A stretch of DNA of 64,000 nt from assembly GCA_038321965.1 (NCBI GenBank), contig JBBQFL010000016.1:12832-76831 (forward strand), in the 5' to 3' direction. A program made the position numbers and the translations under genes. Origin of the DNA: Burkholderiales bacterium (GTDB taxonomy: Bacteria; Pseudomonadota; Gammaproteobacteria; Burkholderiales; Usitatibacteraceae). Of this stretch, positions 630-23,627 are shown one piece after another; position 1 is the first letter of the stretch, and each line of letters opens with the position of its first letter. The notes below the pieces were generated by a model. It did no database searches. It was not told the origin of the DNA and saw only the letters and a list, made by a program, of their open reading frames with translations.

Positions 630-1508
630 GTGAATCCGTTTGAACTCACCGGCTTCAGTTTTCTTGGCTTTTACCTCTTGCTGGGGATCGCTGCCATGCT
701 TGCCATGCGAGCCTGGATCCGGCATCTTGAGACAGCAAACGCGCCACCGACACAAAACATGACCGACCCGTATCTGATCGCGTATCTGCGAAATGGCGAA
801 AACGAGGCGATGCGGGTGGCAACGGTGGCCCTGCTGGATCGAGGGCTGCTGGTCGCTGTTGGCGAGAACCTGACGACGAAGAACAGCAAAGCGTTCGGCG
901 TGGTCCAGCGACCAATCGAGAGCGCGATACTGCAACACTTCGTATCTCCCGGCGAGGGCCATGAAGTATTCAAGAATATCGCCGCAAAGAGCGCTTGTAC
1001 CAGCTATGGGAATTTGCTCAAACAGCAGGGCATGATCGCCGACGCAGGCGTCTATTTGACGCGGCTGTTGCCTGCGTTGGTGATACTCGGTCTATTGGTC
1101 GCGGTGACTTGCACGAAGATCAGCATCGCTTTTTCACAGGGCCGTCACAACGTCGGCTTCCTGGTGGTACTGACCATATTGTTCGGCATCATTGCCATCG
1201 TCATCTGGTGCAGGCGACGCACCGCTCGTGGCGACGAAATGCTGGCGGATTTACGATCCCTGTTCTCGCGCTTGAAAAATCGCGCCAAATCGATGCGGGC
1301 CGGCGGACAAACCAACGAAGCTGCCCTGCTCGCCGCCGTATTCGGTCTGTCGGCGCTGCCAGCGGCGAGTTTTCCTTTCCTCGAAAGGCTGTACCCGGCC
1401 AAAGCGCGCGACGGCAGCGGTTGCGGGTCTACTTCGGATTCATCGTCCTCCTGTAGCAGCGGCAGCAGTTGTGGTGGCGGCTGCGGTGGTGGTGGCTGTG
1501 GCGGCTGA
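630..1508 (+). CDS. Membrane protein with a TIGR04222-like N-terminal domain and a C-terminal Cys/Gly/Ser-rich low-complexity tail
   Basis: N-terminal transmembrane helix, a cytoplasmic domain, then two TM helices. The tail reads ...GSGCGSTSDSSSSCSSGSSCGGGCGGGGCGG* directly before the stop. The stop (TGA 1506-1508) is followed after 1 nt by the DUF692 start. Confidence 0.6.
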   Translation: MNPFELTGFSFLGFYLLLGIAAMLAMRAWIRHLETANAPPTQNMTDPYLIAYLRNGENEAMRVATVALLDRGLLVAVGENLTTKNSKAFGVVQRPIESAILQHFVSPGEGHEVFKNIAAKSACTSYGNLLKQQGMIADAGVYLTRLLPALVILGLLVAVTCTKISIAFSQGRHNVGFLVVLTILFGIIAIVIWCRRRTARGDEMLADLRSLFSRLKNRAKSMRAGGQTNEAALLAAVFGLSALPAASFPFLERLYPAKARDGSGCGSTSDSSSSCSSGSSCGGGCGGGGCGG

Positions 1509-1509
1509 G

Positions 1510-2412
1510 ATGACCACGATGTCAAACAGTACTGATCGGGTCGGTATTGGCTGGCGCGGCGAATTGGCGGCCGGGATATTTTCAAATCTTGACAGCATCG
1601 ACCTGCTGGAACTCGTCGCCGATGATCATTTCCGCGCCACGCCGCGCGAATTGCGGGCACTTCGCACGCTGGCAAGCCACACACCGATCACGCTGCATGG
1701 TGTGGCAATGGGCCTCGCAGGGAGCGAGCCGACGCAGACTCGACGTATCGACAACATGGCGCGCCTGGTCGATGCGCTGCAACCGCAATCGTGGTCTGAG
1801 CACCTCGCGTTCGTTCGCGCCGGGGGCGTCGAAATTGGCCACCTCGCTGCACCGCCACGAACCGCGCAAAACATCGATGCTGCCGTTGCCAATATCGAAT
1901 GCGCAATCCGAATTGTCGGCCGTGCGCCGTTGCTAGAAAATATTGCCACCCTGATCAATCCCCCGGCCAGCAAGCTGGATGAAGCGACGTGGGTAACCGA
2001 CATCATCCTCGGCAGCGGCGCGGAACTATTACTTGATCTGCATAACCTGTACGCAAATGCCGTTAATTTTGGCATCGATCCCACTGACTTGCTGCTGCGA
2101 TTTCCCATCCATCGCGTAAAGGCGGTGCATCTAAGTGGCGGCAAATGGATACCGGAGCCGTCGATGGACGGTGCGTTGCCAACTGCGGAGCCGCGCTTTC
2201 GGCTGCTTGACGATCACGTTCACGACGTTCCTGACGCCGTATTTGATTTGCTGACGCTGTTGGCGCAGCATGCACCTCAGCGGCTTGATGTCATCATCGA
2301 GCGCGACGGAGAGTATCCTGATTTCACCTGTCTGCTGGCGCAACTTGATCGCGCTCGTACGGCGCTGCAGCGGGGCAGAAACGCATCAAACGCATTGCGG
2401 AGGGCAGCATGA
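1510..2412 (+). CDS. DUF692 (UPF0276; MbnB/TglH/HvfB-like multinuclear non-haem-iron oxidase) family protein
   Basis: About 300 aa. The motif ...RVGIGWRGELAAGIF...IDLLELVADDHF... fits the TIM-barrel DUF692 family. Start ATG 1510 is chosen as tightly coupled to the upstream stop; the ORF frame opens at 1471. Confidence 0.6.
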   Translation: MTTMSNSTDRVGIGWRGELAAGIFSNLDSIDLLELVADDHFRATPRELRALRTLASHTPITLHGVAMGLAGSEPTQTRRIDNMARLVDALQPQSWSEHLAFVRAGGVEIGHLAAPPRTAQNIDAAVANIECAIRIVGRAPLLENIATLINPPASKLDEATWVTDIILGSGAELLLDLHNLYANAVNFGIDPTDLLLRFPIHRVKAVHLSGGKWIPEPSMDGALPTAEPRFRLLDDHVHDVPDAVFDLLTLLAQHAPQRLDVIIERDGEYPDFTCLLAQLDRARTALQRGRNASNALRRAA

Positions 2413-10085: not shown

Positions 10086-10559
10086 ATGTCCATTTACACA
10101 CTTGGCTATGAAGGCCTCGATATTGCAGGCTTCATCGCTCGACTCCAGCAAGTTGGCATAAGGACAATTGTTGACGTCCGCCAGCTTCCGTTGTCCCGAA
10201 AGCGTGGTTTCTCCAAGAAATCTTTTTCAGAAGCCCTGGCGCAGGCAGGCATCGCGTATGTTCACATGCCGACGCTTGGCTGCCCAAAAGCGATTCGGGA
10301 TTCGTATAAGCAAGATCAGGACTGGAGGCTGTACTCAGACGCCTTCCTGGCGTACCTTCAAACTCAGGGAGCCGGTGTGCGCGAACTGGCAAAGATTTCG
10401 CGTGCGACAACAGCGTGTCTTGTTTGCTTCGAAGCAGATTTCAATTTCTGCCACAGAACGTATGTTGCCCGCGCGACACGGCGATTCGGTGCTCCCGCCG
10501 TTCAGCACATCACGGCGCAAACAGTGGTAGCTGATTTGCCGCTGCGGGTGGCTGCTTAG
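10086..10559 (+). CDS. DUF488 family protein
   Basis: MSIYTLGYEGLDIAGFIARLQQVGIRTIVDVRQLPLSRKRGFSK... matches DUF488. The C-terminal roughly 25 aa extend past the usual family length and overlap the convergent 279-aa ORF by 50 nt. Confidence 0.65.
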   Translation: MSIYTLGYEGLDIAGFIARLQQVGIRTIVDVRQLPLSRKRGFSKKSFSEALAQAGIAYVHMPTLGCPKAIRDSYKQDQDWRLYSDAFLAYLQTQGAGVRELAKISRATTACLVCFEADFNFCHRTYVARATRRFGAPAVQHITAQTVVADLPLRVAA

Positions 10560-11349
10560 GCGGATAAATCAGCGAAACAATAAGCCACTGATTGGGAAAG
10601 CGATGGATCGTCCCGAGCATAAGCAAAAGGTCTTTCGAAGGTAGTTCTTGTTCGAGCTTTTGCCGGAACGGTGCTACCCAACCAGTACCGTGCCTACTGT
10701 GGACTTTCCAGAAAAGTGCACCAACTTCCCAGTCAACCAGCTTGTGCCGAAACTCGTGTTTCTCGCCGTTCACGTCGCATTCATACCGGTAGTGAAAGTC
10801 GTACGGGATTTTCCTCAGTAGCTTGAGGGTCCTGGCTTCCTCGTTCTCGTCGAACAAGCCCACTTGCATTTGCATTTGAAGCAGCTTGGCTTTTTCTTCC
10901 TCCGTCCAATCAGGAGCGCTAGTCTTCTTGATTTCCAACTCCACGATCCGCGAAGGGCGCAACAACGCGAGCGTGTGCCCCTTGCTTGTTCGATCCTGCT
11001 CGACGGAAGCGAAGTCAGAATAAACTGGAATCATCGCGAGCCACTGCCTGCGTTCGCGCCACCCCGCCTCGCCACTTGGCAAGGCCGACTCATCGCAGTT
11101 GATCGTATCGACGTAGATCTTGTGACTCTCGGGCCGATGATCGTTCCCGGCTTTCTCAATCCTGGCGGTGATCCATTGCCACTTCTTGAACTGCTGCTCG
11201 TCGCCAACAAGTCGAAACGGCATTGGGTAAATTCGGATCAGCTTTCCAGATTCGTCCATCCCCGCGACACAAGAAGTCTCGGTGTACTTCGCGCTTGGCG
11301 ATGGGTACGTCTTGCAAAGAATCAGAATTCGCTCGATCTTTGAAATCAC
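10510..11349 (-). CDS. Hypothetical protein (279 aa) at the left edge of the low-GC block
   Basis: Long ORF with no motif I recognise. It is acidic and Trp-rich. It lies downstream of the higB / HTH-ImmA / beta cassette after a 277-bp gap. Confidence 0.4.
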   Translation of the reverse strand: MISKIERILILCKTYPSPSAKYTETSCVAGMDESGKLIRIYPMPFRLVGDEQQFKKWQWITARIEKAGNDHRPESHKIYVDTINCDESALPSGEAGWRERRQWLAMIPVYSDFASVEQDRTSKGHTLALLRPSRIVELEIKKTSAPDWTEEEKAKLLQMQMQVGLFDENEEARTLKLLRKIPYDFHYRYECDVNGEKHEFRHKLVDWEVGALFWKVHSRHGTGWVAPFRQKLEQELPSKDLLLMLGTIHRFPNQWLIVSLIYPPKQPPAAANQLPLFAP

Positions 11350-11626
11350 TATTGAATCCTCGCTAGATCAGGCGCTTTGGACACCGACACAACACTGGAG
11401 CCACCTCCTTCGTTCATTACCTTACCAATCAAGATTAGACGGAGGCATCAAGCGGACGTGGCTCTAATTTCTTGACTCTTCAATGGGTCAATATCGAGTC
11501 GCTTCAAAGAATTGACTCAGACAAGGGGCTCGTAGCATAAGCGCGGTTCGTGGCAGCATTTGCGCTATGAGAAACGAGTGCGCAGCGTTTGCTGCGCTGT
11601 CGCGTCAACTATTGGGACAACAGCAC

Positions 11627-12769
11627 TCAGCTGGCTTCAATTTCGAGAAGTTGATTCAGCCATGCGTGCGACAGCGGCTTCGGCAACGCAAACCGCCCTT
11701 CTCCCCCACATGCGCCAATGTGTTGCCATACTTGCTGTGATACAAACTCGATATGATGATTGGCGTCGTTTGCAACAGCAGGTCCAGGCGAAAACTTTCC
11801 TGTGCCGAACATCGCAACAGATGCAAACTTCTGATCGCCGAAGCTAAAGTTTCGGCCCATAAAGTCTTTCGATGTGACAAGCTCTTTGCAAAGCTGTTGG
11901 TAGTCGCCACGTGCCGCGCGTCGGATCACATGGTCGAGTGGCGTTGTGTAGCGAATACGCGCAGGCACGTTGACGACCTTCGCCGGTGGGGTGTGATGAA
12001 TTTCAACAATTCCATGATCACCAAACGCCAAGTCGCGCGTGCCCGCCAGCAAGCGCGCGACATCTGACCAAATATCGTATTCGACCCGACGGAAGCGCAG
12101 CACCTCGCCTTTGGTCCGTTTCCCCAACTGTGCGGGAATGCTCGTCCCGGAGAGGACGATGTTACGAAAGTTCCCCATACCGTTTATCGCGTCAATCGCA
12201 TCCTTTGCCACCGATCGCAGCCGCTCCGCCTTATCGTTGCCAACAAAAGCGAAGTTCAGCACGAGATCTGCCTTCTCAGGGGGGATGCTCAACGCCTCGA
12301 GCGTTGCGCCAATCGCCTCTTCAAGAAATGTTGGCTCTTCAAGTTCGTCGCGCGCCAAGCGAATACACACGCCTTTGAGGTCGGTAGCAACAATGCCGCG
12401 AACTGCCTCTACATACTCCAGCCCGCGATCCACTATCGTACCGGTTACCGGAACACAGGTCGTACCGTTCCGCCGAAGCATTTGTGCCAAATAGCTGATC
12501 GGTTGAAACCCTGAGCCTGTGACTAACTCTGGCGGGAAGTCATGAACATCAAAATAAATTCTGCCGCCGAGTTTGGCGCATTGGGCAATTCCTTCTGCGC
12601 GTTTGTCGAGTTCATGATCAACCGTCTCGCCCTCTTTTAAGGTAGGACGCGGCAAATCGAACAGGAAGGCGCTACGCGAGTGGGCTTCAGGCGACAGATT
12701 CTGCACCGCAGTGAATGCACCCCCGCGCGCTGTAAGACTCGCCATGTAGCAAAATGAGCCAGGCATCAT
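11627..12769 (-). CDS. Beta-family-like protein (PF14350-type partner of an HTH/ImmA regulator); tentative
   Basis: 380-aa ORF placed 1 nt after the stop of the HTH-ImmA gene. The adjacency of an about 350-380-aa protein to an XRE-HTH + ImmA/IrrE protein is the known context of the T4 'beta protein' family. I cannot verify family membership by eye. Confidence 0.35.
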   Translation of the reverse strand: MMPGSFCYMASLTARGGAFTAVQNLSPEAHSRSAFLFDLPRPTLKEGETVDHELDKRAEGIAQCAKLGGRIYFDVHDFPPELVTGSGFQPISYLAQMLRRNGTTCVPVTGTIVDRGLEYVEAVRGIVATDLKGVCIRLARDELEEPTFLEEAIGATLEALSIPPEKADLVLNFAFVGNDKAERLRSVAKDAIDAINGMGNFRNIVLSGTSIPAQLGKRTKGEVLRFRRVEYDIWSDVARLLAGTRDLAFGDHGIVEIHHTPPAKVVNVPARIRYTTPLDHVIRRAARGDYQQLCKELVTSKDFMGRNFSFGDQKFASVAMFGTGKFSPGPAVANDANHHIEFVSQQVWQHIGACGGEGRFALPKPLSHAWLNQLLEIEAS

Positions 12770-13996
12770 CTACTTCCAATTCACCTCGGGAAAGTGCTTG
12801 CGCACTTGTTTTTGTCCCACAAGGCCACTGAAATTTCCATAGCCCGTACGTTCTTTTCTCAGGCGACCAGCGATGACTGCGGGATGAATCTGAAGCTTTT
12901 CAGCAAGTGCGCAAATCGTTGCGACAGACGGTTTTAAGTAGGCTTCACTGCGTTTCCAGGCAACCCGAGGAATAAACGCATCACGCGCGATCCGATTTGC
13001 CTCAGCCTCTTTCGCGTCGTCTTCAGTATCATCCTCGATGCTCTCATCCGTAATTACAAAATCTTTTTCAGGCAGATGTTTCCACGCATGCACGAGTTCG
13101 TGCATAAGCGTGAACCAGAAATTGTCAATGCGATCCTGGCGAAGTGTCATTCCCACGACCGGAGCCCCATCGGAATCCAGCATGGCCGCGCCATCAAGCT
13201 TGGTGTGTGGCAGGACCGGGAGTAGCACGAGCGCAATACCCTTTTCCGCGAGGAACTCTTGCGCCAAGCGTGGCCCTCGCTCTGACCAACTCAATCGTGC
13301 GATATAGGCAAGAAAGTCTTCATTCAATGTGCCTTCACGCCAAGAACCACGTTGCTTGCGAGATGTGAGGGCAAGCTCGCGAACCCTACCAACCCAAAGT
13401 CGCAAGTTGGTCTTGTCCGTTTCAGGAGTGGCGCCATAGGTAATGGTCCGCTTCAAATACAACGGGCCGCGCCGCGGCTTCAAGTAGCGCTGCACAACAT
13501 CACGTGCCGTCAACTGCGATACATCTTCATTCAGGAAGAAACCAGACTTGACGAGTGCGGGCAGCTGAATGTCTTCTTCACCATCGCCCGATTGATCGCT
13601 GCCATACGGTGCAGCAGGCTCGCGCACCAGCAGCTCCGCCGGAATATGCAAAGTCTCGCTAAGCGAGCGAACCATACCAAGTGTCAACGCGCGTTTGCCG
13701 GAGAGTACTTCCGATACGCGATTCTTCCCGCCTAGAATTGTTGCCAAATCTTTTTGGCGAAGACCTTGCTCCTCCATTCGAAAGCGAATCGCGCTCAATG
13801 GGTCCGGTCGCGCGAAAGCAAATCGCTGCTTTTCATAGTCCTCTACGAGTTTCGCCAGCAATTCCAGGCGATCCCCTTCCGGTGAACCCATCGGAGGATC
13901 ATCCGCAGCCAGCCGTTCAATTTCGGCAACCGCGTCGCGGTGCTGTTGCTCTGTCTTGATAATGCGCGGATCCATGATTGGCTTGATTGTCTTCAA
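12770..13996 (-). CDS. HigA-like XRE-family HTH antitoxin fused to an ImmA/IrrE (COG2856) zinc-metallopeptidase domain
   Basis: The N-terminal roughly 110 aa resemble COG5499-type HigA (EQQHRDAVAEIERLA...GDRLELLAKLVEDYE... plus an HTH). The C-terminal domain has HEXXH (FTLMHELVHAW). Its start overlaps the upstream higB-like stop by 4 nt. Confidence 0.7.
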   Translation of the reverse strand: MKTIKPIMDPRIIKTEQQHRDAVAEIERLAADDPPMGSPEGDRLELLAKLVEDYEKQRFAFARPDPLSAIRFRMEEQGLRQKDLATILGGKNRVSEVLSGKRALTLGMVRSLSETLHIPAELLVREPAAPYGSDQSGDGEEDIQLPALVKSGFFLNEDVSQLTARDVVQRYLKPRRGPLYLKRTITYGATPETDKTNLRLWVGRVRELALTSRKQRGSWREGTLNEDFLAYIARLSWSERGPRLAQEFLAEKGIALVLLPVLPHTKLDGAAMLDSDGAPVVGMTLRQDRIDNFWFTLMHELVHAWKHLPEKDFVITDESIEDDTEDDAKEAEANRIARDAFIPRVAWKRSEAYLKPSVATICALAEKLQIHPAVIAGRLRKERTGYGNFSGLVGQKQVRKHFPEVNWK

Positions 13997-14277
13997 TTAA
14001 TTCTCTTCGTGTATTCCGCATGTGTGCCAGCCCAACGAACGATCACGACATGCGTGTTGTAAGTTACCTGCACTTCCAATCGGTAGTGGTTACCCTTGAC
14101 GTTGAAGATCACCACGTTTCCACCGAGAAAACTCGCGGATGAATACATGTTCTTGATGTCCTGTGGCGTCTGCCATTTGGCCTGCTCCGTATCGGCAATC
14201 CAGTTTTCGATCCACGAACGAGCGTCAGCATGTGCGCCCACAAAATCATGTAACTGTTGGCGCCCGACGATTAGCAT
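13993..14277 (-). CDS. higB: HigB-like (COG4680/RelE-fold) type II toxin
   Basis: 94 aa. ...FNVKGNHYRLEVQVTYNTHVVIVRWAGTHAEYTK... is the conserved HigB-toxin core. It is the first gene of the three-gene cassette. Confidence 0.6.
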   Translation of the reverse strand: MLIVGRQQLHDFVGAHADARSWIENWIADTEQAKWQTPQDIKNMYSSASFLGGNVVIFNVKGNHYRLEVQVTYNTHVVIVRWAGTHAEYTKRIN

Positions 14278-14318
14278 GCGTGCTCTTGAATTGGCTCATG
14301 CGGGGAGCATAGCACAAT

Positions 14319-14335
14319 GTTCCCATAATGGGAAC
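14319..14335. promoter_or_regulatory. Perfect 7-3-7 palindrome GTTCCCATAATGGGAAC, a candidate operator for the higB cassette
   Basis: Lies about 42 bp upstream of the higB start (14277, minus strand) in an AT-rich promoter region. Confidence 0.4.
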
Positions 14336-14757
14336 TTAAGTCTTGTTTATTTTTTGTGGAACAACTGGCAAATCAAAACGCTGGCAGACAACCTTTCAGT
14401 TCGATAATAAACCGCCGGATAACCCTATGATTTTGTTACTTAATTCGCGCACTTCGATTTTATTATCTTGACCATCGGATATAAAATTGCAACTTGGTTA
14501 GAACAAGCAGCTTCATTTCCGGTACTCAGCCAGCCTAACCCAATCTCCCAACTGATTCTGGATGTACCAAAAATGCCGCCAGGAGGCGGGTGGATGCCAT
14601 GGTTTCAGTTCTGCGCGATGCATCCCACAGAGGCTTCCCGCAGTCGTAGGGCGGATTCGGCGTGGCCTTGGGCCATATGCACAATCAAGGAGACCGACGC
14701 GAACCCTTGGCAGGCGAATAAAAACAATTGACGTTGGCCCTTTCATGCATTCGCCTC

Positions 14758-15867
14758 TCAATCGAGCAATAAGCCGAGAATCAACTCGACGTGTTCATGC
14801 TCGCCCTCCGGGTACCAAATGGGCGTAATGTGCGCATCCGCAAGACGCTGGTCAATTTCTTGTTTCATTGCAGGATCAGTCGGGCAGGCAAGGAGCGCGT
14901 AATGGTGGGGTAAATTGTCCTGCCCTTCCTGCTGCGCCACTTTCATAAAAGTCTGAATCGTCCTGTCAGCCGACAAGCTGCAACCGAGAAACAGAAAGCT
15001 GTAACTAGTAAAGAGTCGCCTCAGCAATTTCGGAAGGGGACAATCAAAGTGAATGTTTCCGTCATTGCCATAAGCGGTGTCGTACTCGACTTTGTTAAGG
15101 ACACGTTCAGCGGCATTGTCGAGATTGCCATGAAGCTTCAATAGATAACGTTCACCAGCGGGAATAGCGCGGAAGAAGGCGCTGGCTTGCCCGCGGCCCG
15201 TGACTTTTTCGACAAAAGCCTTAGCATCGTTTTCGTAAACTTTTTCGAGTACGCGATCGAAATTGGTTGTAACGACACTATTGTCGAACAGTGTTGGCAG
15301 AAGCGTCACGGCGCCAGTAATATCATCTGGAATCTTAAAGTCGCGCTCGAAATCGAGATTGAAACGATTCACGCCGAGAGTCGTAACAAGATCGTTCATT
15401 ACGCCCTCATAATCGTATTTTTCTTCAAGTCGCGTACGTATGGCCTCGGGGTCAAACTTGGCATCGTCGCAGAGCTTGAGCAAATACTCTTTCCACTCAG
15501 GGCAACCGGCGCTCTTCGACATCCCTGCACCCACAAACGGAATCACAAAACCCCTCTGGCACGAACGCTTGAGCTCTTCAAAACGCGGCAAATTTCTGGA
15601 GAACTGATCCGTGTTCAAAATCTGGGCGTTCTTTTCCTGATCAAAACGCCTAGCTTCTTGTTCGTAGAGATTGCGATCACCAAAATAGAAGGCACGACTT
15701 GGTTTCGCAAGCTGGATTTCTACATCGCCGCGCTTGCAAATTACTTGAATTTCCTCAAACTCCTCATCTTCATCAATCGCGTAGTCAAAGCGACGATTCT
15801 TGCCAATTCCGGCGAGTTCTTCCAATGTAGCTTCGTGGTCAAATGCGGGATGCGAAGGACTTTGCAT
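14758..15867 (-). CDS. SIR2-like (SIR2_2/DHS-like NAD-binding) domain protein, probable defence effector
   Basis: VIPFVGAGMSKSAGCPEWKEYL (GAGxS nucleotide-binding loop) and a downstream KLHGN motif. The start ATG sits 3 nt after the hsdS stop (TGAcccATG). GC is lower than in flanking housekeeping genes. Confidence 0.6.
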   Translation of the reverse strand: MQSPSHPAFDHEATLEELAGIGKNRRFDYAIDEDEEFEEIQVICKRGDVEIQLAKPSRAFYFGDRNLYEQEARRFDQEKNAQILNTDQFSRNLPRFEELKRSCQRGFVIPFVGAGMSKSAGCPEWKEYLLKLCDDAKFDPEAIRTRLEEKYDYEGVMNDLVTTLGVNRFNLDFERDFKIPDDITGAVTLLPTLFDNSVVTTNFDRVLEKVYENDAKAFVEKVTGRGQASAFFRAIPAGERYLLKLHGNLDNAAERVLNKVEYDTAYGNDGNIHFDCPLPKLLRRLFTSYSFLFLGCSLSADRTIQTFMKVAQQEGQDNLPHHYALLACPTDPAMKQEIDQRLADAHITPIWYPEGEHEHVELILGLLLD

Positions 15868-15870
15868 GGG

Positions 15871-17559
15871 TCAAACCTCAGCGGTAAGTTCGGCAACAAC
15901 GGCTTCGAGGAGAGCGGCGCCCTTGGTGCGGGCGGTGGCGAGCTGGGTTTCCAACGCATCCACCAACGCCATCAGTTCGTCGACTTTCGCCACGATTCGG
16001 CGTTGTTCGGCGAGGGGCGGAACCGGAATTGGGAGACTTCTTAGCGTCGTCTGGTTGATTTTTGGCATGCTACCGGACGTGCCGGATGCCCTGGCACGAA
16101 GGAAATCACGAGAGGCTTCTTGGCTCATTGCCAAGTGAACGAATCCAACATCTAGCGCTGATGAGACTCTCAACTTCATCATCAAGTCGGGATAGACGAA
16201 CAGATTGGGATCGCCGCGATACACGGCGGCTACGCCAACATACTCAATCGTGTTTCCTCGCTGAACAAGGATATCACCGTCACGCAGCCACAAATCCGAA
16301 TCTTTGGGAACGTCAGTAGTAATGAACTTGGCATGTCTGCCGTTGAAGCGGCCAGATGTCGTCGCGGTCAAGGTGAGGGAGCGAACTGGAGTCTCATAGT
16401 CCACAGCTTTCGGAGAGAAGCCGTTTGTCGGGCCGAAGACCAACAGGTCATCAAGTTGGCGGCGCTGCCAAGACGGAGGTATGTCGAGGCCAAGTGCGTT
16501 CGTGCTGTCAATTGCTTGAACTTCTTTTGCTGTGGTGCGATTGAGCCTCATCCGTTCGGCGAAGCACCGTGCCATCAGCACCTCTACCGGTTCGTCGTTT
16601 GGGTCTTGGGGAATGAGTTTCCCTTGGACAGCGAGGGTAAGGATGGATTTGCGAAGGTCGGCGGGGTTGATGTCGTAGCGTTTGTGGAAGAGGAAATCGA
16701 GGTTGGCCAAGGTCGGCGCGTCAGCGAAGCGGGTCAGCGAAGCGCGGGCGAGTTCGGCGTGTTTCGTCCCCTGCTGCTGCTGCTGTGCTTCTAGGTCGTC
16801 ACATAATGCCATCAACTCATCCACCTTCGCCACGATCCGCTTCTGCTCGTTTTCAGGTGGCATCGGAACTGGCAACAGTAGGAACTCACTGCGCGCAATT
16901 CCACCGATAATCCCAGTCATACGGGACGCAAACTGCCTGAAAAACGTGGGCGCTTGGTACAAATAGAAAACATAGCGTGGATGAATGCCGTCCCACACTT
17001 CATTTGCGTATAGTTTGTTTCCGAAGCAGATATCCCGATCAGTAATTCCGACTTTTTTCCCAGCACTCCCACCTTCGGCGCATATCAGCACAGCATGCGC
17101 GTGAGCTACCTTGAAATCTGATCGACCAACTGGAACCTTTAGACCATTCTTATAGGCTAAGGCATCACGCCCATAGCCAACGTCTTTCGTCGCAATGAAC
17201 GGAAGCCCAGTTTCAACTCTCGCCAGCTCAGCCTTACCTGTCTCGCTGACGCTGTTTCCATTGAAGATCCATCCGGTATCCCCGAGACGCACCCACCGCC
17301 ATTCGACCGGAATTCGAAATGGCACACTGTCTCCAAATTTTGGGAGTGCCTCCTGCTTTCTCGCGAGGCCCGCAGTTACGGCCTTCAGTCTCGCGTCGGC
17401 CGTCTTCTTGAGTAGCTCAGCCACAGGGCTATCAGAAGCATGCTGCGGCACTAACTCGCCACGAATAGCGAGTTCTAAAATCAAATGCCGCATCTTCGCC
17501 ACCGCGTCGGGTGCACCAACAAAATAGTCGAACTTCTGAAAGAACTGTTCGCGTTTCAT
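15871..17559 (-). CDS. hsdS: Type I restriction-modification specificity subunit HsdS
   Basis: Two target-recognition domains separated by conserved repeats LPVPMPPENEQKRIVAKVDELMALCDDLEAQ and LPIPVPPLAEQRRIVAKVDELMALVDALETQ. Overlaps hsdM by 4 nt. Confidence 0.85.
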   Translation of the reverse strand: MKREQFFQKFDYFVGAPDAVAKMRHLILELAIRGELVPQHASDSPVAELLKKTADARLKAVTAGLARKQEALPKFGDSVPFRIPVEWRWVRLGDTGWIFNGNSVSETGKAELARVETGLPFIATKDVGYGRDALAYKNGLKVPVGRSDFKVAHAHAVLICAEGGSAGKKVGITDRDICFGNKLYANEVWDGIHPRYVFYLYQAPTFFRQFASRMTGIIGGIARSEFLLLPVPMPPENEQKRIVAKVDELMALCDDLEAQQQQQGTKHAELARASLTRFADAPTLANLDFLFHKRYDINPADLRKSILTLAVQGKLIPQDPNDEPVEVLMARCFAERMRLNRTTAKEVQAIDSTNALGLDIPPSWQRRQLDDLLVFGPTNGFSPKAVDYETPVRSLTLTATTSGRFNGRHAKFITTDVPKDSDLWLRDGDILVQRGNTIEYVGVAAVYRGDPNLFVYPDLMMKLRVSSALDVGFVHLAMSQEASRDFLRARASGTSGSMPKINQTTLRSLPIPVPPLAEQRRIVAKVDELMALVDALETQLATARTKGAALLEAVVAELTAEV

Positions 17560-19037
17560 TCACTCAATCCCGCAATAGCGGAGAGCGCGCGCTGCAATTC
17601 CTGTTTTAGCGCATCACGCGTATCAGCAATGTGCCCCAAGAGATTTTCGTATTCGGGCAGCAAGTGATCCACATCGCCGGGACCGGTGTCAGGATTGTGC
17701 GGATTTTTGAGGTCAAGATTGAAATTTCCCGCCTTGATCTGTTCGATGGAAACCCGCCAAGCCTGCTCGTTTTCCACGCGCGCTTTGAACCCATCGGATT
17801 CTTTTCCCCACCATGCGCGTTCCGCAGCAAATTCCTCAATGCGAATCGGCTTGCCCTTGTTGTAGCTCTTCGCACCCTCGGGATACGGGTGTTCGTAGTA
17901 CCAGACTGCCGTGGTCGGCGCGCCCTTGGTGAAGAACAGGAGATTGGTGCGAATACCGGTATACGGATTGAAGACACCGTTGGGCAAGCGGACGATGGTG
18001 TGCAGGTTGCAATCGGTGAGCAGCGCTTCCTTGATGCGAGTCTTCACGCCTTCTCCAAACAACGTGCCGTCCGGCAACACCAGCCCGGCGCGGCCACCGG
18101 GCTTGAGGATTTTCATCAGCAGGACAAGGAACAGATCGGCGGTCTCGCGGGTACGGAACTCGGAAGGGAAGTTGGATTCGATGCCGTCTTCCTCCATGCC
18201 GCCGAACGGGGGATTGGTGACGATCACGTCCACGCGCTCCTTTGGGCTCCAGTCGCGCAGCGGGCGTGCCAGCGTGTTGTCGTGCCGCACATTGGAAGGC
18301 ACGTCAATGCCGTGCAACAGCAGATTGGTCATGCACAGCACGTGTGGCAAATGTTTCTTTTCGATGCCGGCAAAGCAGTTCTGGATATGTTCCTCGTCGG
18401 CTTCAGTCTTGGCTTGCTTGCGCAGATGGTCGATGACGCAGGTGAGGAAGCCGCCCGTCCCGCAGGCCGGGTCCAGGATGGATTCGCGCTTCTTGAGGTT
18501 GGGATTGACCTGCTCGACGATGAACTGGGTGACGGCGCGCGGGGTATAGAACTCGCCCGCATTGCCGGCCGATTGCAGGTCCTTGAGAATTTTTTCGTAG
18601 ATGTCGCCAAACATGTGGCGGTCATCGGAGGCGTTGAAGTCGATGCCGTTGATCTTGTTGATCACCTGCCGCATCAAGGTGCCGTTCTTCATGTAGTTGT
18701 TGGCATCTTCAAACGTCATGCGGATCAGGCCGGCGATTTTGTCCGCGCCGCCGGTCAGTGACTTGAGCTTCGGCAGCAGGGTGTTGTTGACAAAATCCAG
18801 CAGCGCTTCGCCGGTGATGCCCTCTTCGTCCGTTGCCCAGCTGGACCAGCGCAGATGCTTGGGAAGCGGCGATTTGTAGTTGTCGCGGAGTACCGCCATC
18901 TCCTTCTCGCGGTCGTCAAAGATTTTGAGGAAGAACATCCAACCGAGTTGTTCGAGTCGTTGCGCGTCGCCGTAAGTGCCGGCGTCCTTGCGCATGATGT
19001 CCTGAATGGTTTTGACGATATTCGATACGTTGGCCAT
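17556..19037 (-). CDS. hsdM: Type I RM N6-adenine DNA methyltransferase HsdM
   Basis: HsdM N-terminal domain (MANVSNIVKTIQDIMRKDAG...), an AdoMet motif (DPACGTGGFL) and the catalytic NPPFGG. Confidence 0.9.
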   Translation of the reverse strand: MANVSNIVKTIQDIMRKDAGTYGDAQRLEQLGWMFFLKIFDDREKEMAVLRDNYKSPLPKHLRWSSWATDEEGITGEALLDFVNNTLLPKLKSLTGGADKIAGLIRMTFEDANNYMKNGTLMRQVINKINGIDFNASDDRHMFGDIYEKILKDLQSAGNAGEFYTPRAVTQFIVEQVNPNLKKRESILDPACGTGGFLTCVIDHLRKQAKTEADEEHIQNCFAGIEKKHLPHVLCMTNLLLHGIDVPSNVRHDNTLARPLRDWSPKERVDVIVTNPPFGGMEEDGIESNFPSEFRTRETADLFLVLLMKILKPGGRAGLVLPDGTLFGEGVKTRIKEALLTDCNLHTIVRLPNGVFNPYTGIRTNLLFFTKGAPTTAVWYYEHPYPEGAKSYNKGKPIRIEEFAAERAWWGKESDGFKARVENEQAWRVSIEQIKAGNFNLDLKNPHNPDTGPGDVDHLLPEYENLLGHIADTRDALKQELQRALSAIAGLSE

Positions 19038-19054
19038 TGGTTACGCTGCTTCCT

Positions 19055-21421
19055 TTATGCGGCTTGCTGATAGAGATGGGTTTCGAGTTCGAGAATGGCG
19101 GCAAGGTATTTTTCCCGGCCGCCGAAGAGGCCGACGATTTCCACCGGCGTACCAAATTTTGTGAGGGGATCGACCTTGAGAATTTCCAGCGATTCCACGC
19201 TCTTTAGGCCGGCATCGGAGTACTTATCCAGCAGGGCTTCCAGTACCGCGCGGGCCTTGTCGCCGAATTTGCCGAAGACATTGCGCTTGCGAACCCGGTC
19301 GGCGCGCTCCTTGCGCGTGAGGGGTTTTTGGTCAAAGGCGACATGGCAGATGAGATCGAAGGCGTCCATGTCCTGCCCCACTTGCTCGGCGAGCTCATCG
19401 ATGAATACACCGTGGTGCGAGAGTTCTTCGACAACCGCCTGCTTGCGCGTCGCTTCGTTCCAGGCGTTCAGGAACGCATTGAGCGAGGCGTATTCCTTGC
19501 GCACGGCTTTGCGCGTGAAGTCTTTCAGAGACTCGGTCAGCAGTTTGCCGTCGGCATCCAGATACTGGACGCGCTCGCTGATGATGCGGACTTCGACGTT
19601 GTCGACAACGTAGCAATGGCGGGGGTTGTCGGTCGACGGTGTATCCGGCAGGTGCACGACATCCATCCCGGTATCTGCTTCGGGTTCGTCCGCGGGCAAG
19701 GTGACGTCGTCAGGTGGCACGATTGGTTGATCGCCCTTCGGTTCGTAAATCTGCACCGGGTCGCCGTCGAAGTCCGGGTCGGCAAACGCGGCAGTCGCCC
19801 GCTTGAAGTCGATGATCGTGAAATAGAGCTTGCCGTAGTCTTCATTGATACGTGTGCCGCGGCCAATGATCTGCTTGAACTCGGTCATCGAATTAATCGT
19901 TTTGTCGAGCACGATGAGTCGACAGGTTTGTGCATCCACGCCGGTGGACATGAGCTGAGACGTTGTAACAAGGACCGGGTAGGTCGATTCCGGGTCAATG
20001 AAGTTGTCGAGTTGCTGCTTGCCTTCATCGTTGTCACCCGTAATGCGCATGACGTACTTGCTGTTGGCCGCTGCCAGATCGGGGTTGGCGTTGACGAGTG
20101 CCTGGCGCATCCGTTCGGCGTGCGCAATGGTTTCACAGAAAATGATTGTCTTTGCGTAGCGGTCTGTTGCCTTCAAAAATTCGGTGATCCGTTGAGCGAC
20201 AACGATATTGCGCTTGGTCAGAACCAGCGTTCGATCGAAGTCGCGCTCGTTGTATTCGCGGTCCTCGATCAATTCGCCGTTGCGATCAGTCTGGCCCTTT
20301 TCGGGTCGCCAACCTTCGAGATCCTTGTCCAGTCCAATGCGGATAACTTTGTACGGCGCGAGGAAACCATCGGCGATGCCCTGCTTGAGCGAGTAGGTAT
20401 AAACGGGTGCGCCGAAGTAGTGGATGTTGGAGACGTATTTGGTTTCTTTCGGTGTAGCGGTCATGCCGATCTGCGTGGCCGATGAGAAGTAGTTCAGGAT
20501 GTCGCGCCAAGCCGCGTCGTCCGCTGCGCTCCCGCGATGACACTCGTCTACGACAATGAGATCAAAGAAGTCAGGCGAAAACTGCCTGTAGATATTTTGT
20601 TCCACTTCTGTACCGGTTACTGCCTGGTACAGCGCCAGGTAAATCTCATACGACTTGTCGACCGTGCGATTGGTAATCTTGGTCATCGCCTTGCCGAAGG
20701 GCTTGAAGTCGTTGGTCTTGGTCTGGTCGGCGAGGATGTTCCGATCAACGAGGAACAGAATGCGTTTCTTCGCGCCGGACTTCCACAGGCGCCAAATAAT
20801 CTGGAAGGCGGTGTAGGTTTTACCGGTTCCGGTCGCCATGACCAGCAGCAGGCGTTTCTGGCCCTGGACGATCGCCTCTACCGTGCGGTTGATGGCGATC
20901 TGCTGGTAATAGCGCGGGCCTTTCCCGGAGACGTCGTCGTAGTACTCTTGTGAGGCGACGGCAACTTGCGCAACTGAGTAGCCTTTCCACTTGCAATAGC
21001 GCGCCCAGAGTTGCTCCGGCGTCGGAAACGCATCAAGCGCGATTTCCCTTTCCACCGCGCCTGTCGTAACTGTGCGGTCGTGCTCCAGAAAGGCATCGCC
21101 ATTCGAGCTGTACACAAACGGGATGTCGAGAGTCTCGGCGTATTCGAGCGCATGCTGCATACCATCGCCGACTTTGTGCGTGTTGTCTTTCGCTTCGACA
21201 ACTGCGATCGGCATGCCAGGTTTGTAATACAAAACGTAGTCGGCCTTGCTCGCTTCGCCGCGCTTCACTGTCTTGCCGCGAACGATCACTCGCCCCTTCG
21301 TGAAGTAGACCTCCTCACGAAGTTGCGTCATCACATTCCATTTCTCGCTAGAACTTCCAACGATGGCGGGCGTGATGAATTTGGTACGTATGTCGGCTTC
21401 AGTAAGCGCTTTTTTGTTCAC
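19055..21421 (-). CDS. hsdR: Type I restriction endonuclease subunit HsdR
   Basis: N-terminal HsdR/Res domain (MNKKALTEADIRTKFITPAI...), helicase motifs (Walker A MATGTGKT, DEAD-box DECHR) and a C-terminal HsdR domain. Confidence 0.9.
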   Translation of the reverse strand: MNKKALTEADIRTKFITPAIVGSSSEKWNVMTQLREEVYFTKGRVIVRGKTVKRGEASKADYVLYYKPGMPIAVVEAKDNTHKVGDGMQHALEYAETLDIPFVYSSNGDAFLEHDRTVTTGAVEREIALDAFPTPEQLWARYCKWKGYSVAQVAVASQEYYDDVSGKGPRYYQQIAINRTVEAIVQGQKRLLLVMATGTGKTYTAFQIIWRLWKSGAKKRILFLVDRNILADQTKTNDFKPFGKAMTKITNRTVDKSYEIYLALYQAVTGTEVEQNIYRQFSPDFFDLIVVDECHRGSAADDAAWRDILNYFSSATQIGMTATPKETKYVSNIHYFGAPVYTYSLKQGIADGFLAPYKVIRIGLDKDLEGWRPEKGQTDRNGELIEDREYNERDFDRTLVLTKRNIVVAQRITEFLKATDRYAKTIIFCETIAHAERMRQALVNANPDLAAANSKYVMRITGDNDEGKQQLDNFIDPESTYPVLVTTSQLMSTGVDAQTCRLIVLDKTINSMTEFKQIIGRGTRINEDYGKLYFTIIDFKRATAAFADPDFDGDPVQIYEPKGDQPIVPPDDVTLPADEPEADTGMDVVHLPDTPSTDNPRHCYVVDNVEVRIISERVQYLDADGKLLTESLKDFTRKAVRKEYASLNAFLNAWNEATRKQAVVEELSHHGVFIDELAEQVGQDMDAFDLICHVAFDQKPLTRKERADRVRKRNVFGKFGDKARAVLEALLDKYSDAGLKSVESLEILKVDPLTKFGTPVEIVGLFGGREKYLAAILELETHLYQQAA

Positions 21422-21446
21422 GTGGGATGTGACGAGCTATTCGCAA

Positions 21447-21510
21447 AACTCTAGCACTGGAGAGCCTCTCAGGCCGAAAGTACTTTGAAATGTGCGCCGG
21501 TGCTAGAGTT
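21447..21510. repeat. REP/MITE-like palindromic intergenic element, copy 2
   Basis: Arms AACTCTAGCACTGG (21447-21460) and CCGGTGCTAGAGTT (21497-21510), 26 bp upstream of the hsdR start. Homologous to the elements at 4839-4904 and 57934-57998. Confidence 0.5.
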
Positions 21511-21643
21511 TGTTGTTATTGTGCCATTGAACTATTTTTCTATCGTACTACATCGCCTTCCTTTAAATACCTAACCATGGAAGTAGATTACGGCCCAAAA
21601 TTGTCGCGTCGCGTCGCCTCGCCAGTCGTTTCCGTCCAAGCTG

Positions 21644-21964
21644 CTACGCCGCAAGCCGCTGCACACGCGGCATGGGCTTGTTCATCACTTGCCACAAATC
21701 GTATTGCATCTGCAGTCCCAGCCACAGGTCAGCACTCGTACCCAGTGCCTTCGACAGGCGGACGGCCATTTCCGCGCTTACGCCAGCGCGACCATTCACC
21801 ACAGCTGACAACGCCTGTCGCGTCACGCCTAGCCTGGTGGCGACTTCAACCAGCGTCATTGCCTCTGGCAAATACTCCCGAAGGACTTCGCCGGGGTGCG
21901 GGGGATTGTGCTGTTTGCAAGTATTGTCCTCAGTGGCAATCCAGGTAATCGACCAACTCGACAT
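21644..21964 (-). CDS. higA: HigA-type (COG3093) XRE-HTH antitoxin
   Basis: NPPHPGEVLREYL...LGVTRQALSAVVNGRAGVSAEMAVRLSKALGTSADLWLGLQ is the classic HigA sequence. The real start is probably downstream of the annotated ATG, which lies inside the higB remnant. Confidence 0.7.
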   Translation of the reverse strand: MSSWSITWIATEDNTCKQHNPPHPGEVLREYLPEAMTLVEVATRLGVTRQALSAVVNGRAGVSAEMAVRLSKALGTSADLWLGLQMQYDLWQVMNKPMPRVQRLAA

Positions 21965-22076
21965 CCGGGCCTACAAATCGAAAAACAAAGCGCCAATTAT
22001 CATTCAAGACAATCGACTGGTGACCTTGATTCTCAGCGGCAAAAAACAATTTGCGATGCTTGCCTTCTAGCTTTGG
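21929..22076 (-). pseudogene. higB: Truncated higB (RelE/ParE-fold killer toxin), C-terminal half only
   Basis: Minus-strand frame translates to ...GHQSIVLNDNWRFVFRFVGPDVELVDYLDCH*, which is a HigB C-terminus. A stop lies immediately upstream, and the expected N-terminal half is occupied by the 3' end of hipA. Confidence 0.5.
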
Positions 22077-23317
22077 TCACCACCCGAAAACGCCGGCCCC
22101 ATCAAGCTGATATCGGCCTTGCCAATGCCACCCTTGCGCGCAAATTCAGGCCATTCTTGCACAACGCTTCGAATCTCCTCGATCATGGTTTTCGCTGCGG
22201 CTTCTTGCAAACCGTAGTACGCGGCCATCGCAATCGCCGTTTCCAGATCCGGTCGATTGTCCGACTCATCAATGGCCAGCGCGTGGTCCGACTTTTCAAT
22301 GTTGGGGTTCATGTCATAGGCCGGGGAAAGCCGCCAGCCATCCGCGGTCAGGATGAACCCGTGGTTTCTCAGGTGATCATCGCGATTGCCGACCATGATG
22401 TTGAACACAACACGCTTGAACAATTGAGCCAGATCGGTGGCGATCTGATTTCTGGCACCGCTCTTCTGAATGAACTCGGCAATTTCCAGATAGCTTCCTG
22501 TCGCGCCATCAGACTTTCGCAGCAGCGTCATCGCAGAGGAGAAGAACCGACGCCGTCCAGCGGCACGGTCAAACCGTTTGACGCAAAACGTGTGGTGTGC
22601 AGAAGCGAGCTTCATGACACGAGCCTCGGGGACCTCGATGCCCGCGGCGCTTGCAAGTTGGTGCACCACCCACTCCCAGCCACCAACATCGCGCACGTCT
22701 TCACGGCTGGGAAACTTGGCGATCCACAGGCTGCCATCCTTATCCGTAAAGTTCGCTTTGGGGCGAGCGCCACCGAGAGACGCGCCCGGCGCGACCAGGA
22801 CGGCGAGCCACTTTCTCAATTTTGCCAGGTTGTCGATTTTCTTCGCGCTCAACTCGAACGCGATCGCCTCCATCTCGCGCAAACTTGTCAAGGGCGGCGC
22901 CGATAACGGGTGCGCTGCCAAGAATCCCGCGTTCGCGTTCCGTCGAAAGCGCAGCGCGCCCTGGCGTGTCGCATCTTGCACGCCGAGCAGAAAGTCCCAC
23001 GCATGCAGCGTGCGCGGGGCGCGGCGCTCGTCCTTTGCTTCAAGCGCTTCGCGCCGCTGCATCAGCACCTGACCCCAACGATCCGGTGAAGAGTCGAGGA
23101 ATACGCCGAAATTGCCCACTTCCGGTTTGGGAAAAAATGGTGCCTTGTCCAGTTTGAGGTCGGGATCCAATTCAAACGCGATTCGCTGTTTCAACCACTC
23201 ATCATGGTAGCGAAAGCGCACTTGCCCACGGTCATGCGAGAGACTGCCGACCAACTGGAGTTCGCCGACTATGTCAGCGTCGATCCAGACCTCAAGCGCG
23301 GACGGGTCAAGTTTCAT
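22067..23317 (-). CDS. hipA: HipA-family serine/threonine kinase toxin
   Basis: HipA N- and C-terminal domains (GGARPKANF, DDHLRNHGF). Start is taken at MKLDPSALEVW (23317), which overlaps hipB by 11 nt. Confidence 0.8.
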   Translation of the reverse strand: MKLDPSALEVWIDADIVGELQLVGSLSHDRGQVRFRYHDEWLKQRIAFELDPDLKLDKAPFFPKPEVGNFGVFLDSSPDRWGQVLMQRREALEAKDERRAPRTLHAWDFLLGVQDATRQGALRFRRNANAGFLAAHPLSAPPLTSLREMEAIAFELSAKKIDNLAKLRKWLAVLVAPGASLGGARPKANFTDKDGSLWIAKFPSREDVRDVGGWEWVVHQLASAAGIEVPEARVMKLASAHHTFCVKRFDRAAGRRRFFSSAMTLLRKSDGATGSYLEIAEFIQKSGARNQIATDLAQLFKRVVFNIMVGNRDDHLRNHGFILTADGWRLSPAYDMNPNIEKSDHALAIDESDNRPDLETAIAMAAYYGLQEAAAKTMIEEIRSVVQEWPEFARKGGIGKADISLMGPAFSGGDQS

Positions 23318-23627
23318 TCGGCACCCGGCTCTTTCGTGTCCGCGGAAGTTCCAGATCCTGAAGGCGACGCCCGAGTTCGTCGTCTTTCGCGATAAGGGCA
23401 AGGTCGTTTTCCAGTCGCAACACGCCAAGAATTTTCGAGTAAGTGCCCAGTGTGACTGCGGAATCACCCTTCTCCGCACGATGCAACGTGACCCGCGAGA
23501 TACCCGCGCGTTCCGCCACAATCTCCGCAGAGAATTTGCGTCGCAAGCGCGCCAGACGCAACCGCTCGCCGAGGCCGGTCAGCAGGGCTCGTTCAGAGGC
23601 GAATGTGGGTTGAGCTTTGGCAGGCAT
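23307..23627 (-). CDS. hipB: HipB-like XRE-HTH antitoxin
   Basis: LRLARLRRKFSAEIVAERAGISRVTLHRAEKG is an HTH_XRE. Lies directly upstream of hipA and overlaps it. Confidence 0.7.
   Translation of the reverse strand: MPAKAQPTFASERALLTGLGERLRLARLRRKFSAEIVAERAGISRVTLHRAEKGDSAVTLGTYSKILGVLRLENDLALIAKDDELGRRLQDLELPRTRKSRVPNET

Follow-up and report, generated by a model that had tools for sequence, protein, structure and literature searches.

A predicted SIR2-type NAD+ hydrolase gene placed directly behind hsdS in a type IB restriction-modification operon and its relatives

Restriction-modification (RM) systems of type I belong to the most common bacterial defences, and DNA mimics such as Ocr and ArdA are a routine means by which phages disarm them. 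Of the back-ups wired into type I systems, to our knowledge only PrrC and Ronin have been studied. PrrC is an anticodon nuclease encoded within the EcoprrI type IC RM locus, where the gene order is hsdM-hsdS-prrC-hsdR. Canonical type IB (EcoAI/EcoEI) operons are composed of three genes in the order R-M-S. Here we describe a type IB operon that contains a fourth gene, coding for a SIR2-family protein predicted to hydrolyse nicotinamide adenine dinucleotide (NAD+). The operon lies in a stretch of 64,000 nucleotides (nt) from a Burkholderiales bacterium (GCA_038321965.1, contig JBBQFL010000016.1, positions 12,832 to 76,831 of the forward strand), hereafter the window. The SIR2 gene had been picked out in an earlier note made from the sequence alone.

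Ronin consists of HsdS, HsdM, and the 61-residue toxin RonA, and is a decoy without hsdR (Silas et al., bioRxiv 10.1101/2023.04.06.535777). It fires when Ocr, ArdA, or Aop1 bind, providing anti-anti-restriction or decoy immunity (10.1101/2023.04.06.535777). A linkage of predicted Sir2 enzymes to type I RM systems was noted by Makarova, Anantharaman, Aravind, and Koonin in 2012 (Biol Direct 7:40, PMC3506569), who proposed by analogy with PrrC that it couples immunity to suicide. The Sir2 link is covered there in one sentence and a figure panel, with nuclease or ADP-ribosyltransferase activity considered. The cassette in the window is an instance of the linkage stated in 2012. The general link is not new, and a coupling of SIR2 to the RM system, as the earlier note suggested, had already been proposed. 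An N-terminal module of the SIR2 protein, a strict position behind hsdS across two operon layouts, and an affinity to NAD+ hydrolases (NADases) are not described in that paper.

The cassette occupies positions 14758-21421 of the window on the minus strand. It is self-contained and composed of four genes, hsdR-hsdM-hsdS-SIR2, tightly packed head to tail (Table 1). A gap of 17 nt separates the end of hsdR from hsdM, and the hsdM stop and the hsdS start overlap by 4 nt. HsdR matches NCBIfam NF046051 over its full length with 1197.7 bits (cutoff 550), which places it in the EcoAI/FtnUII/type IB family. It contains the Pfam domains ResIII, EcoEI_R_C (PF08463, 1.2e-32), and HSDR_N, and scores 1183 bits against REase_I of PADLOC. 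By these domain assignments, the type IB RM system is complete, with an EcoAI-family HsdR carrying EcoEI_R_C, an N6-adenine methyltransferase HsdM, and a two-domain HsdS. The operon shares the HsdR, HsdM, and HsdS domains and the R-M-S order of canonical type IB operons and adds a translationally coupled SIR2 gene as a fourth cistron.

The SIR2 gene had been located in the earlier note at 14758-15867, with 369 residues and the motifs GAGMS and KLHGN. These details are exact; the strand, which the note did not state, is the minus strand. Its ATG follows the hsdS stop after 3 nt, so that the gene stands as the fourth cistron of hsdR-hsdM-hsdS, also as the note had it. A ribosome-binding site, GAGG, is embedded in the final hsdS codons 8 nt upstream of the SIR2 ATG. 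SIR2 is a translationally coupled part of the operon. At the DNA level, similarity to related cassettes sets in with the start codon of hsdR and breaks off at the stop codon of SIR2, and no conserved gene is found downstream of SIR2 in the related loci. The unit consists of exactly these four genes. The cassette encodes no further sensor or antitoxin gene, which leaves the Hsd proteins or the N-terminal module of SIR2 as the source of regulation.

The SIR2 protein matches Pfam SIR2_2 (PF13289) with 84.2 bits (cutoff 24.5) and an E value of 1.2e-23 over residues 197-350, the only domain found. An AlphaFold2 (AF2) model was built on 82 homologues, with a predicted local distance difference test score (pLDDT) of 91 and a predicted template modelling score (pTM) of 0.87. 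In the model, the Rossmann core is longer than the Pfam match. It begins near residue 92 with a helix (residues 92-104) and a strand (residues 108-112), after which comes the GAGMS loop. A Foldseek search of the PDB with the model placed KomC, BcThsA, EcThsA, SeThsA, and DSR2 at the top, with E values of ~8e-14 to 1e-10 (7.7e-14 to 1e-11 for KomC, BcThsA, and DSR2) and a target TM-score of up to 0.79. The top matches are exclusively NAD+-consuming SIR2 proteins of the defence type. The family profile matches SeThsA at 1e-31, followed by other ThsA entries, DSR2, KomC, and human FAM118B. Both the profile and the fold agree with the SIR2_2-type assignment of the earlier note.

Residues G113, G115, N202, and H246 are invariant in the 82 homologues, which range down to 27% identity with the window protein. 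H246 aligns with H146 of KomC. In the deposited KomC mutants H146N and His-to-Ala, this column reads KFNGD and KFAGD, respectively. H146 is the residue that the depositors mutated in NAD-bound structures, to trap NAD. An active NAD+-cleaving site is very likely, given this pattern of conservation, and the protein is predicted to be a small SIR2-type NADase.

Some enzymes of the SIR2 superfamily are deacylases or ADP-ribosyltransferases and not NADases. The protein could accordingly be a regulatory or modifying enzyme that ADP-ribosylates or deacylates an Hsd subunit, DNA, or a phage protein without depleting NAD+. Such an enzyme would tune restriction, for example in restriction alleviation or in protection from anti-restriction. 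The catalytic Asn and His are common to all these chemistries, and mono-ADP-ribosylation of proteins or DNA was listed as possible by Makarova et al. (PMC3506569). However, the closest neighbours in sequence and structure, ThsA, KomC, DSR2, and FAM118B, are all deposited as NAD+ hydrolases or NADases, and classical sirtuin deacylases are not among the top sequence or structure matches. The Zn-ribbon module of classical sirtuins is also not evident in the secondary structure of the model, as judged by inspection and not by a dedicated test. We regard a modifying enzyme as very unlikely, and a role in tuning restriction as equally so.

The SIR2_2-type core resembles those of the defence NADases ThsA, DSR1/DSR2, KomC, SIR2-HerA, and SPARSA, with the shared motifs GAGxS, TTN(F/Y)D, and K(L/F)HG. 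The expected chemistry would be the same, namely NAD+ hydrolysis leading to abortive infection. Unlike these proteins, the window protein has a unique N-terminal module of ~90 residues and an obligate hsdS neighbour. It belongs to none of these systems. Thoeris was rejected for the absence of a SLOG (STALD) domain, as the last residue, 369, still falls inside the SIR2 core, and for the absence of a TIR-domain ThsB, the neighbours of SIR2 being hsdS and the PD-Lambda-2 A gene. PADLOC matches to ThsA span only positions 18-234 of 478 in the model, and the alignments to ThsA in the PDB end before SLOG. DSR1 and DSR2 were rejected on size (369 versus ~1000-1200 residues), the lack of a large C-terminal sensor, and a score of 25.4 bits against NCBIfam Dsr1 (cutoff 1400). 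SIR2-HerA, Kongming, and SPARSA were rejected since no homologue of HerA, KomA/KomB, or prokaryotic Argonaute is present among the open reading frames (ORFs) scanned at 10086-23521 with Pfam and PADLOC. PADLOC v2 has no dedicated model for the protein and gives only weak matches to ThsA, LmuA, and Dsr1, of which ThsA is the best (4e-18).

Relatives of the cassette were found via similarity to the SIR2 protein, and many of them are contigs of metagenome-assembled genomes (MAGs). Hundreds of homologues of 367-402 residues and 72-85% identity occur in MAGs named Acidobacteriota, Pseudomonadota, Geobacter, and Syntrophales. Scanning a single genome per species yielded 14 related loci. Their hosts include Burkholderiales, Acidobacteriota, Verrucomicrobiota, Geobacteraceae, Nitrosomonadales, Syntrophobacter, Variovorax, Stenotrophomonas, an FCB-group bacterium, Armatimonadota, Planctomycetota, and others. 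The order (hsdR-)hsdM-hsdS-SIR2 is found in all 12 of these genome-collection loci that have complete upstream sequence. In one of the 12 (L007), hsdM and hsdS are degraded, and HsdM is a remnant of 102 residues with 64% identity. In a thirteenth locus (L003) the contig breaks off within hsdS, and for L014 there is no upstream DNA. Across the close SIR2-linked cassettes, identity is 84-90% for HsdM where it is intact, 61-78% for HsdR, 66-83% for SIR2, and 35-75% for HsdS. Low HsdS identity beside better conserved partners is what would be expected when a cassette swaps its specificity.

An exhaustive search of representative sequences extended the family to proteins of ~340-400 residues and 30-44% identity that share the N-terminal region. 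Eight distant lineages (P0285, P0167, P0276, P0303, P0309, P0345, P0320, and P0275) and two plasmids were sampled, and SIR2 lies directly behind hsdS in all of them. Two operon layouts are present. Cycloclasticus, P0345, and P0320 have the R-M-S-SIR2 layout; in Cycloclasticus, an inserted toxin-antitoxin pair separates hsdR from hsdM. The M-S-SIR2-R layout occurs in Vibrio parahaemolyticus, Enterobacter cloacae, Marinomonas, Janthinobacterium, P0275, and plasmids of Vibrio maritimus and Ketogulonicigenium vulgare. Loci of the second layout have a different and longer HsdR, which is only distantly similar to EcoR124I HsdR. The position behind hsdS is kept with both HsdR families, the EcoEI_R_C type and the T1RH-like_C type. 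A Nitrospira genome (L029) also places SIR2 after hsdRMS. Overall, SIR2 directly follows hsdS in 25 of the 26 sampled lineages with context (window included), spanning at least nine phyla and two plasmids. The SIR2 sequences form at least four subclades that are 25-34% identical to each other.

The junction between hsdS and SIR2 is close throughout. The distance from the hsdS stop to the SIR2 start is 3 nt in seven loci, namely the window, L001, L002, L004, L005, L006, and L016. The latter six also reproduce the arrangement of stop, 3 nt, and ATG with a ribosome-binding site in the last hsdS codons. Three other loci have gaps of 5 to 9 nt, and six have overlaps of 1 to 20 nt; one Enterobacter locus is represented by two assemblies, L017 and L018. 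The M-S-SIR2-R loci are tight on both sides, as exemplified by L016, where SIR2 is 3 nt from hsdS and overlaps hsdR by 4 nt. Such spacing is more than chance. The only invariant neighbour of SIR2 is hsdS, and hsdR is retained wherever the contig lets it be seen. The conservation of the position across phyla and deep in the family argues that the linkage is not a hitchhiking accident. The earlier note had left room for an unlinked hitchhiker without a conserved association to hsd operons, and the co-occurrence in other genomes speaks against it. A blastn search with the Enterobacter version gave no match among 5,426 Escherichia coli genomes, so there is no ready E. coli K-12-type model.

The N-terminal module comprises two short helices, a β-hairpin (residues 42-53), and a long helix (residues 65-83). 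Its conserved positions are F27, S57, D64, and Y68. Modelled alone with AF2, the module has a pLDDT of 78. The earlier note had described an N-terminal region of ~100 residues of no recognised kind. The region is indeed specific to the family and without a PDB match when modelled, with a length closer to 90 residues. A mimic of an Hsd subunit was ruled out by hhalign profile comparisons with HsdR, HsdM, and HsdS, all with probabilities <1%. A profile search for fusions of the module to other effectors gave only 56 fragments of 70-191 residues (P0365-P0415), which are truncated copies of the same gene; one of them belongs to the Nitrospira cassette L029. No other domain was seen joined to the module.

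Longer and multidomain SIR2 proteins in the representative search align to the window protein only from around residue 90. The only relative not linked to an RM system is a protein of 465 residues (P0337), whose SIR2 core is 36% identical over residues 98-368. It does not contain the N-terminal module and carries a C-terminal extension of ~165 residues instead. Its gene (L028 4952-6349) is cargo beside the TniQ/TnsD genes of a Tn7-like element. No family member with the module was found outside an hsd operon among the sampled loci. The module appears to track RM linkage, a correlation in which the unlinked side is represented by P0337 as a single relative. This correlation is the best available hint that the module may mediate the coupling between SIR2 and Hsd. 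The module could be a reusable adaptor that docks effectors onto Hsd complexes.

SIR2 could also be an autonomous single-gene defence that uses the hsd operon only as a platform for expression or mobility, with the N-terminal module sensing a phage component and the Hsd proteins playing no regulatory part. Other defence genes are inserted in related type I operons (Xre/RES in L015 and AlbA_2/HATPase_c_4 in L027). DSR2-like SIR2 effectors sense phage proteins via extra domains of their own, according to the titles of structures and abstracts. A related SIR2 core occurs as stand-alone transposon cargo (P0337), and SIR2 can be disrupted with hsdRMS intact (L008 and L029). However, co-localisation alone does not predict a fixed slot behind hsdS, with abutting or overlapping codons, across subclades, two gene orders, and two HsdR families. 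No copy with the module was seen outside an hsd operon, and the stand-alone relative lacks the module. In addition, ~90 residues are few for an independent sensor. An autonomous defence is therefore quite unlikely in our judgement.

The cassette resembles the prr locus in several respects. In both, an effector gene occupies the position directly following hsdS within a type I hsd operon, without a separate antitoxin, and the linkage is conserved across bacteria. The M-S-SIR2-R loci L016, L017, L019, L020, L024, and L025 match the prr gene order. The proposed logic is also the same, in that the Hsd complex would restrain a latent toxin and set it free once restriction is blocked, as discussed for PrrC (PMC3506569). 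The two differ in the effector, which in the window is a predicted SIR2 NAD+ hydrolase of ~370 residues and in PrrC an ABC-ATPase joined to a HEPN tRNA(Lys) nuclease. Unlike PrrC, SIR2 is found with type IB (R-M-S-X) as well as with M-S-X-R operons. Membership of the PrrC family is excluded because SIR2_2 is the sole domain found; the resemblance is in genomic logic only. Ronin likewise ties a type I methyltransferase core genetically to an effector, one that kills the cell. In contrast to Ronin, the window contains a full-length, intact-looking hsdR, and its effector is predicted to be a soluble enzyme of 369 residues instead of a small membrane peptide. The presence of hsdR and the type of effector exclude membership of Ronin.

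Taken together, SIR2 is probably an NADase with a functional tie to the Hsd complex. As its trigger we propose a guard against anti-restriction, modelled on PrrC and Ronin and put forward tentatively, at somewhat less than even confidence. SIR2 would be made in step with HsdS, and the Hsd methyltransferase core (HsdS/HsdM) would keep it inactive via the N-terminal module. Once a phage disables or occupies this core, for instance through an anti-restriction factor that is a DNA mimic or a peptide, SIR2 would be released or would oligomerise. The freed SIR2 would hydrolyse NAD+, and the infection would be aborted. The logic would be that established for PrrC with EcoprrI and proposed for RonA with HsdMS, with an NADase replacing the anticodon nuclease or the membrane toxin. 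The guard model is favoured because hsdS is the only invariant neighbour, because the M2S1 core is the target of DNA mimics, and because PrrC/EcoprrI and Ronin provide direct precedents. The explanation as a whole, a back-up like PrrC/EcoprrI or Ronin in which an NADase is coupled to the Hsd complex and fires by a guard trigger, is the most likely function and seems to us evenly balanced between right and wrong. A stronger version holds that SIR2 is a genuine fourth type I subunit, which docks on HsdM2S1 through the previously undescribed ~90-residue module and is displaced by DNA-mimic or peptide anti-restriction proteins to hydrolyse NAD+. This version, in which the guard would be widespread (at least nine phyla and at least two families of type I) and would make phage anti-restriction a signal for suicide, is possible and somewhat doubtful.

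The trigger could also be the reverse, with SIR2 acting as an amplifier of restriction. A working complex, either HsdMS on an unmethylated target or a stalled translocating HsdR, would switch SIR2 on, and inhibition would play no part. Recognition of foreign DNA would then lead to NAD+ depletion, a second blow independent of DNA cleavage. The evidence from synteny and coupling is the same for such an amplifier as for the guard, and hsdR is kept in every layout where it is visible, unlike in Ronin. Activation of PrrC by unmodified DNA is also possible according to the 2012 review (PMC3506569), and the titles of PDB structures indicate that ligand-induced assembly activates related SIR2 effectors. 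However, the conserved neighbour is hsdS and not hsdR, and hsdR is the most distant gene in the R-M-S-SIR2 cassettes. Unmodified host sites also arise after DNA damage or new acquisition of a system. An NADase firing each time would be self-toxic unless it is under restriction alleviation, which is established for type IA and IB systems (PMC4231737). We consider activation by the working complex unlikely, and the second blow that would follow from it likewise.

Several points, besides the other chemistries within the SIR2 superfamily, weigh against the guard and the NADase coupled to Hsd. Unrelated defence genes are known to insert into type I operons, of which L015 and L027 give examples. A single cassette that spreads horizontally may account for the 13 close loci. 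Independent evidence for linkage therefore amounts to roughly four deep subclades and two operon layouts, and not to 25 independent events. No PDB fold match was obtained for the N-terminal module with Foldseek (best E value 1.1, TM-score ~0.2), and its role is a guess in view of its dissimilarity to any Hsd subunit or solved fold. The hairpin downstream of SIR2 is likely the end of the transcription unit, with the limit that terminator and promoter matches occur at chance frequency and that terminator-like sites are not enriched relative to shuffled sequences. Full-text literature searches found no experimental work on type I RM-linked SIR2, only the 2012 computational note.

The hsdRMS-SIR2 cassette is real, conserved, widespread, and uncharacterised, and a specialist would not be greatly surprised by it. 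Such a compact and widely distributed cassette would demonstrate that the coupling of immunity to suicide predicted in 2012 is general and that it also uses NAD+ depletion. The level of NAD+ would be an easy read-out of how a restriction complex reports its own inhibition. The cassette would also contribute a family overlooked or mislabelled by current tools for finding defence systems.

Two related loci contain disrupted copies of SIR2. In Nitrospira (L029 7001-8106), SIR2 is split into ORFs of 185 and 181 residues behind an intact hsdRMS. In an Akkermansiaceae MAG (L008 5513-6591), SIR2 contains an in-frame TAG and hsdRMS is intact. The disruptions may stem from assembly errors, or a costly gene may really have been pseudogenised; if real, they fit a costly and dispensable accessory gene.

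Other related operons contain inserted genes. An Xre-antitoxin/RES-toxin pair lies between hsdR and hsdM in L015 (3606-4726), and a protein of 514 residues with AlbA_2, HATPase_c_4, and Fic-like_C domains is encoded between SIR2 and hsdR in L027 (8025-9569). Type I operons seem to accumulate accessory effectors. Genes for TIR_2/Y4lF-domain proteins adjoin the hsd-SIR2 module in Nitrospira (L029 8201-9139, plus strand) and Enterobacter cloacae (L017 3692-4672, minus strand). The two proteins belong to one family and are 42% identical, the hosts are very distant, and the operon layouts differ. The TIR_2/Y4lF gene was found in these two loci only and in none of the others, and a tblastn search with the L017 and L029 proteins found none in the window. 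This neighbour may be a coincidence of defence islands or an occasional partner.

Table 1. Features of the hsdR-hsdM-hsdS-SIR2 cassette and of its surroundings, in window coordinates.
Feature	Position	Strand	Evidence
hsdR, first gene; type IB (EcoAI/EcoEI family) restriction/translocase subunit, 788 residues	19055..21421	-	NCBIfam, Pfam, PADLOC
hsdM, N6-adenine DNA methyltransferase subunit, 493 residues	17556..19037	-	Pfam N6_Mtase 3.4e-72 and HsdM_N; PADLOC MTase_I 755 bits
hsdS, specificity subunit with two target-recognition domains, 562 residues	15871..17559	-	Pfam Methylase_S in two stretches; PADLOC Specificity_I 7.5e-91
hsdS-SIR2 junction: GAGG 15879-15876, hsdS stop TGA 15873-15871, spacer CCC 15870-15868, SIR2 ATG 15867-15865	15865..15879	-	Read from sequence
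SIR2-family gene, fourth and last cistron, 369 residues, ATG start; predicted NAD+ hydrolase effector	14758..15867	-	Pfam, AF2, Foldseek, profile
N-terminal extension of SIR2, residues 1 to ~90, specific to the RM-linked family	15598..15867	-	AF2 secondary structure, alignment
GAGMS, residues 113-117, glycine-rich NAD-binding loop after the first Rossmann strand	15517..15531	-	A114 at least 90% conserved (82 sequences); aligns with GAGLS/GAGVS of ThsA/KomC
Asn202 codon, TTNFD motif, predicted catalytic Asn	15262..15264	-	Invariant in 82; aligns with TTNYD of ThsA/KomC; codon read in sequence
His246 codon, KLHG motif (KLHGN, residues 244-248), predicted catalytic His	15130..15132	-	Invariant in 82; aligns with K(L/F)HGD of ThsA/KomC
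Terminator-like GC hairpin CCGCC-TCCT-GGCGG with T-rich stretch, ~170 nt past the SIR2 stop	14576..14589	-	Consensus scan
Promoter-like site for the next gene	14485-14457	-	Consensus scan
PD-Lambda-2 HigB-like toxin	13993-14277	-	PADLOC 4e-42
PD-Lambda-2 protein with helix-turn-helix and M78 peptidase	12770-13996	-	PADLOC 7e-133
PD-Lambda-2 Beta_protein	11627-12769	-	PADLOC 8e-47
PDC-M19B candidate-defence homologue	10510-11349	-	PADLOC 7e-61
DUF488 gene, convergent with the PDC-M19B gene, overlap ~50 nt	10086-10559	+	
HipA-family kinase toxin, just upstream of the hsd operon	22067-23521	-	HipA_C 4.6e-54
MbnB/TglH/ChrH-type modification enzyme for precursors of ribosomally synthesised and post-translationally modified peptides (RiPPs)	1471-2412	+	Pfam 2e-60

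The cassette is part of an island of ~13 kb (~10.0-23.6 kb) with a GC content of 50-55%, whereas the flanks have 56-63%. No tRNA gene was detected anywhere in the window. A complete three-gene PD-Lambda-2 system, a separate element, lies directly downstream of SIR2 on the minus strand (11627-14277). Neither this system nor the PDC-M19B homologue was accepted as part of the unit, as no homologues are present in the 14 related loci, nothing downstream of SIR2 is conserved, and DNA homology ends at the SIR2 stop. The PDC-M19B homologue and the convergent DUF488 gene may form a pair. On the other side of the cassette, the called TTG start of the HipA gene looks too far upstream. Elsewhere in the window, an ORF of 292 residues without a family match precedes the MbnB/TglH/ChrH-type gene on the plus strand. 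The two genes (630-2412) may constitute a small RiPP biosynthetic locus unrelated to hsd-SIR2.

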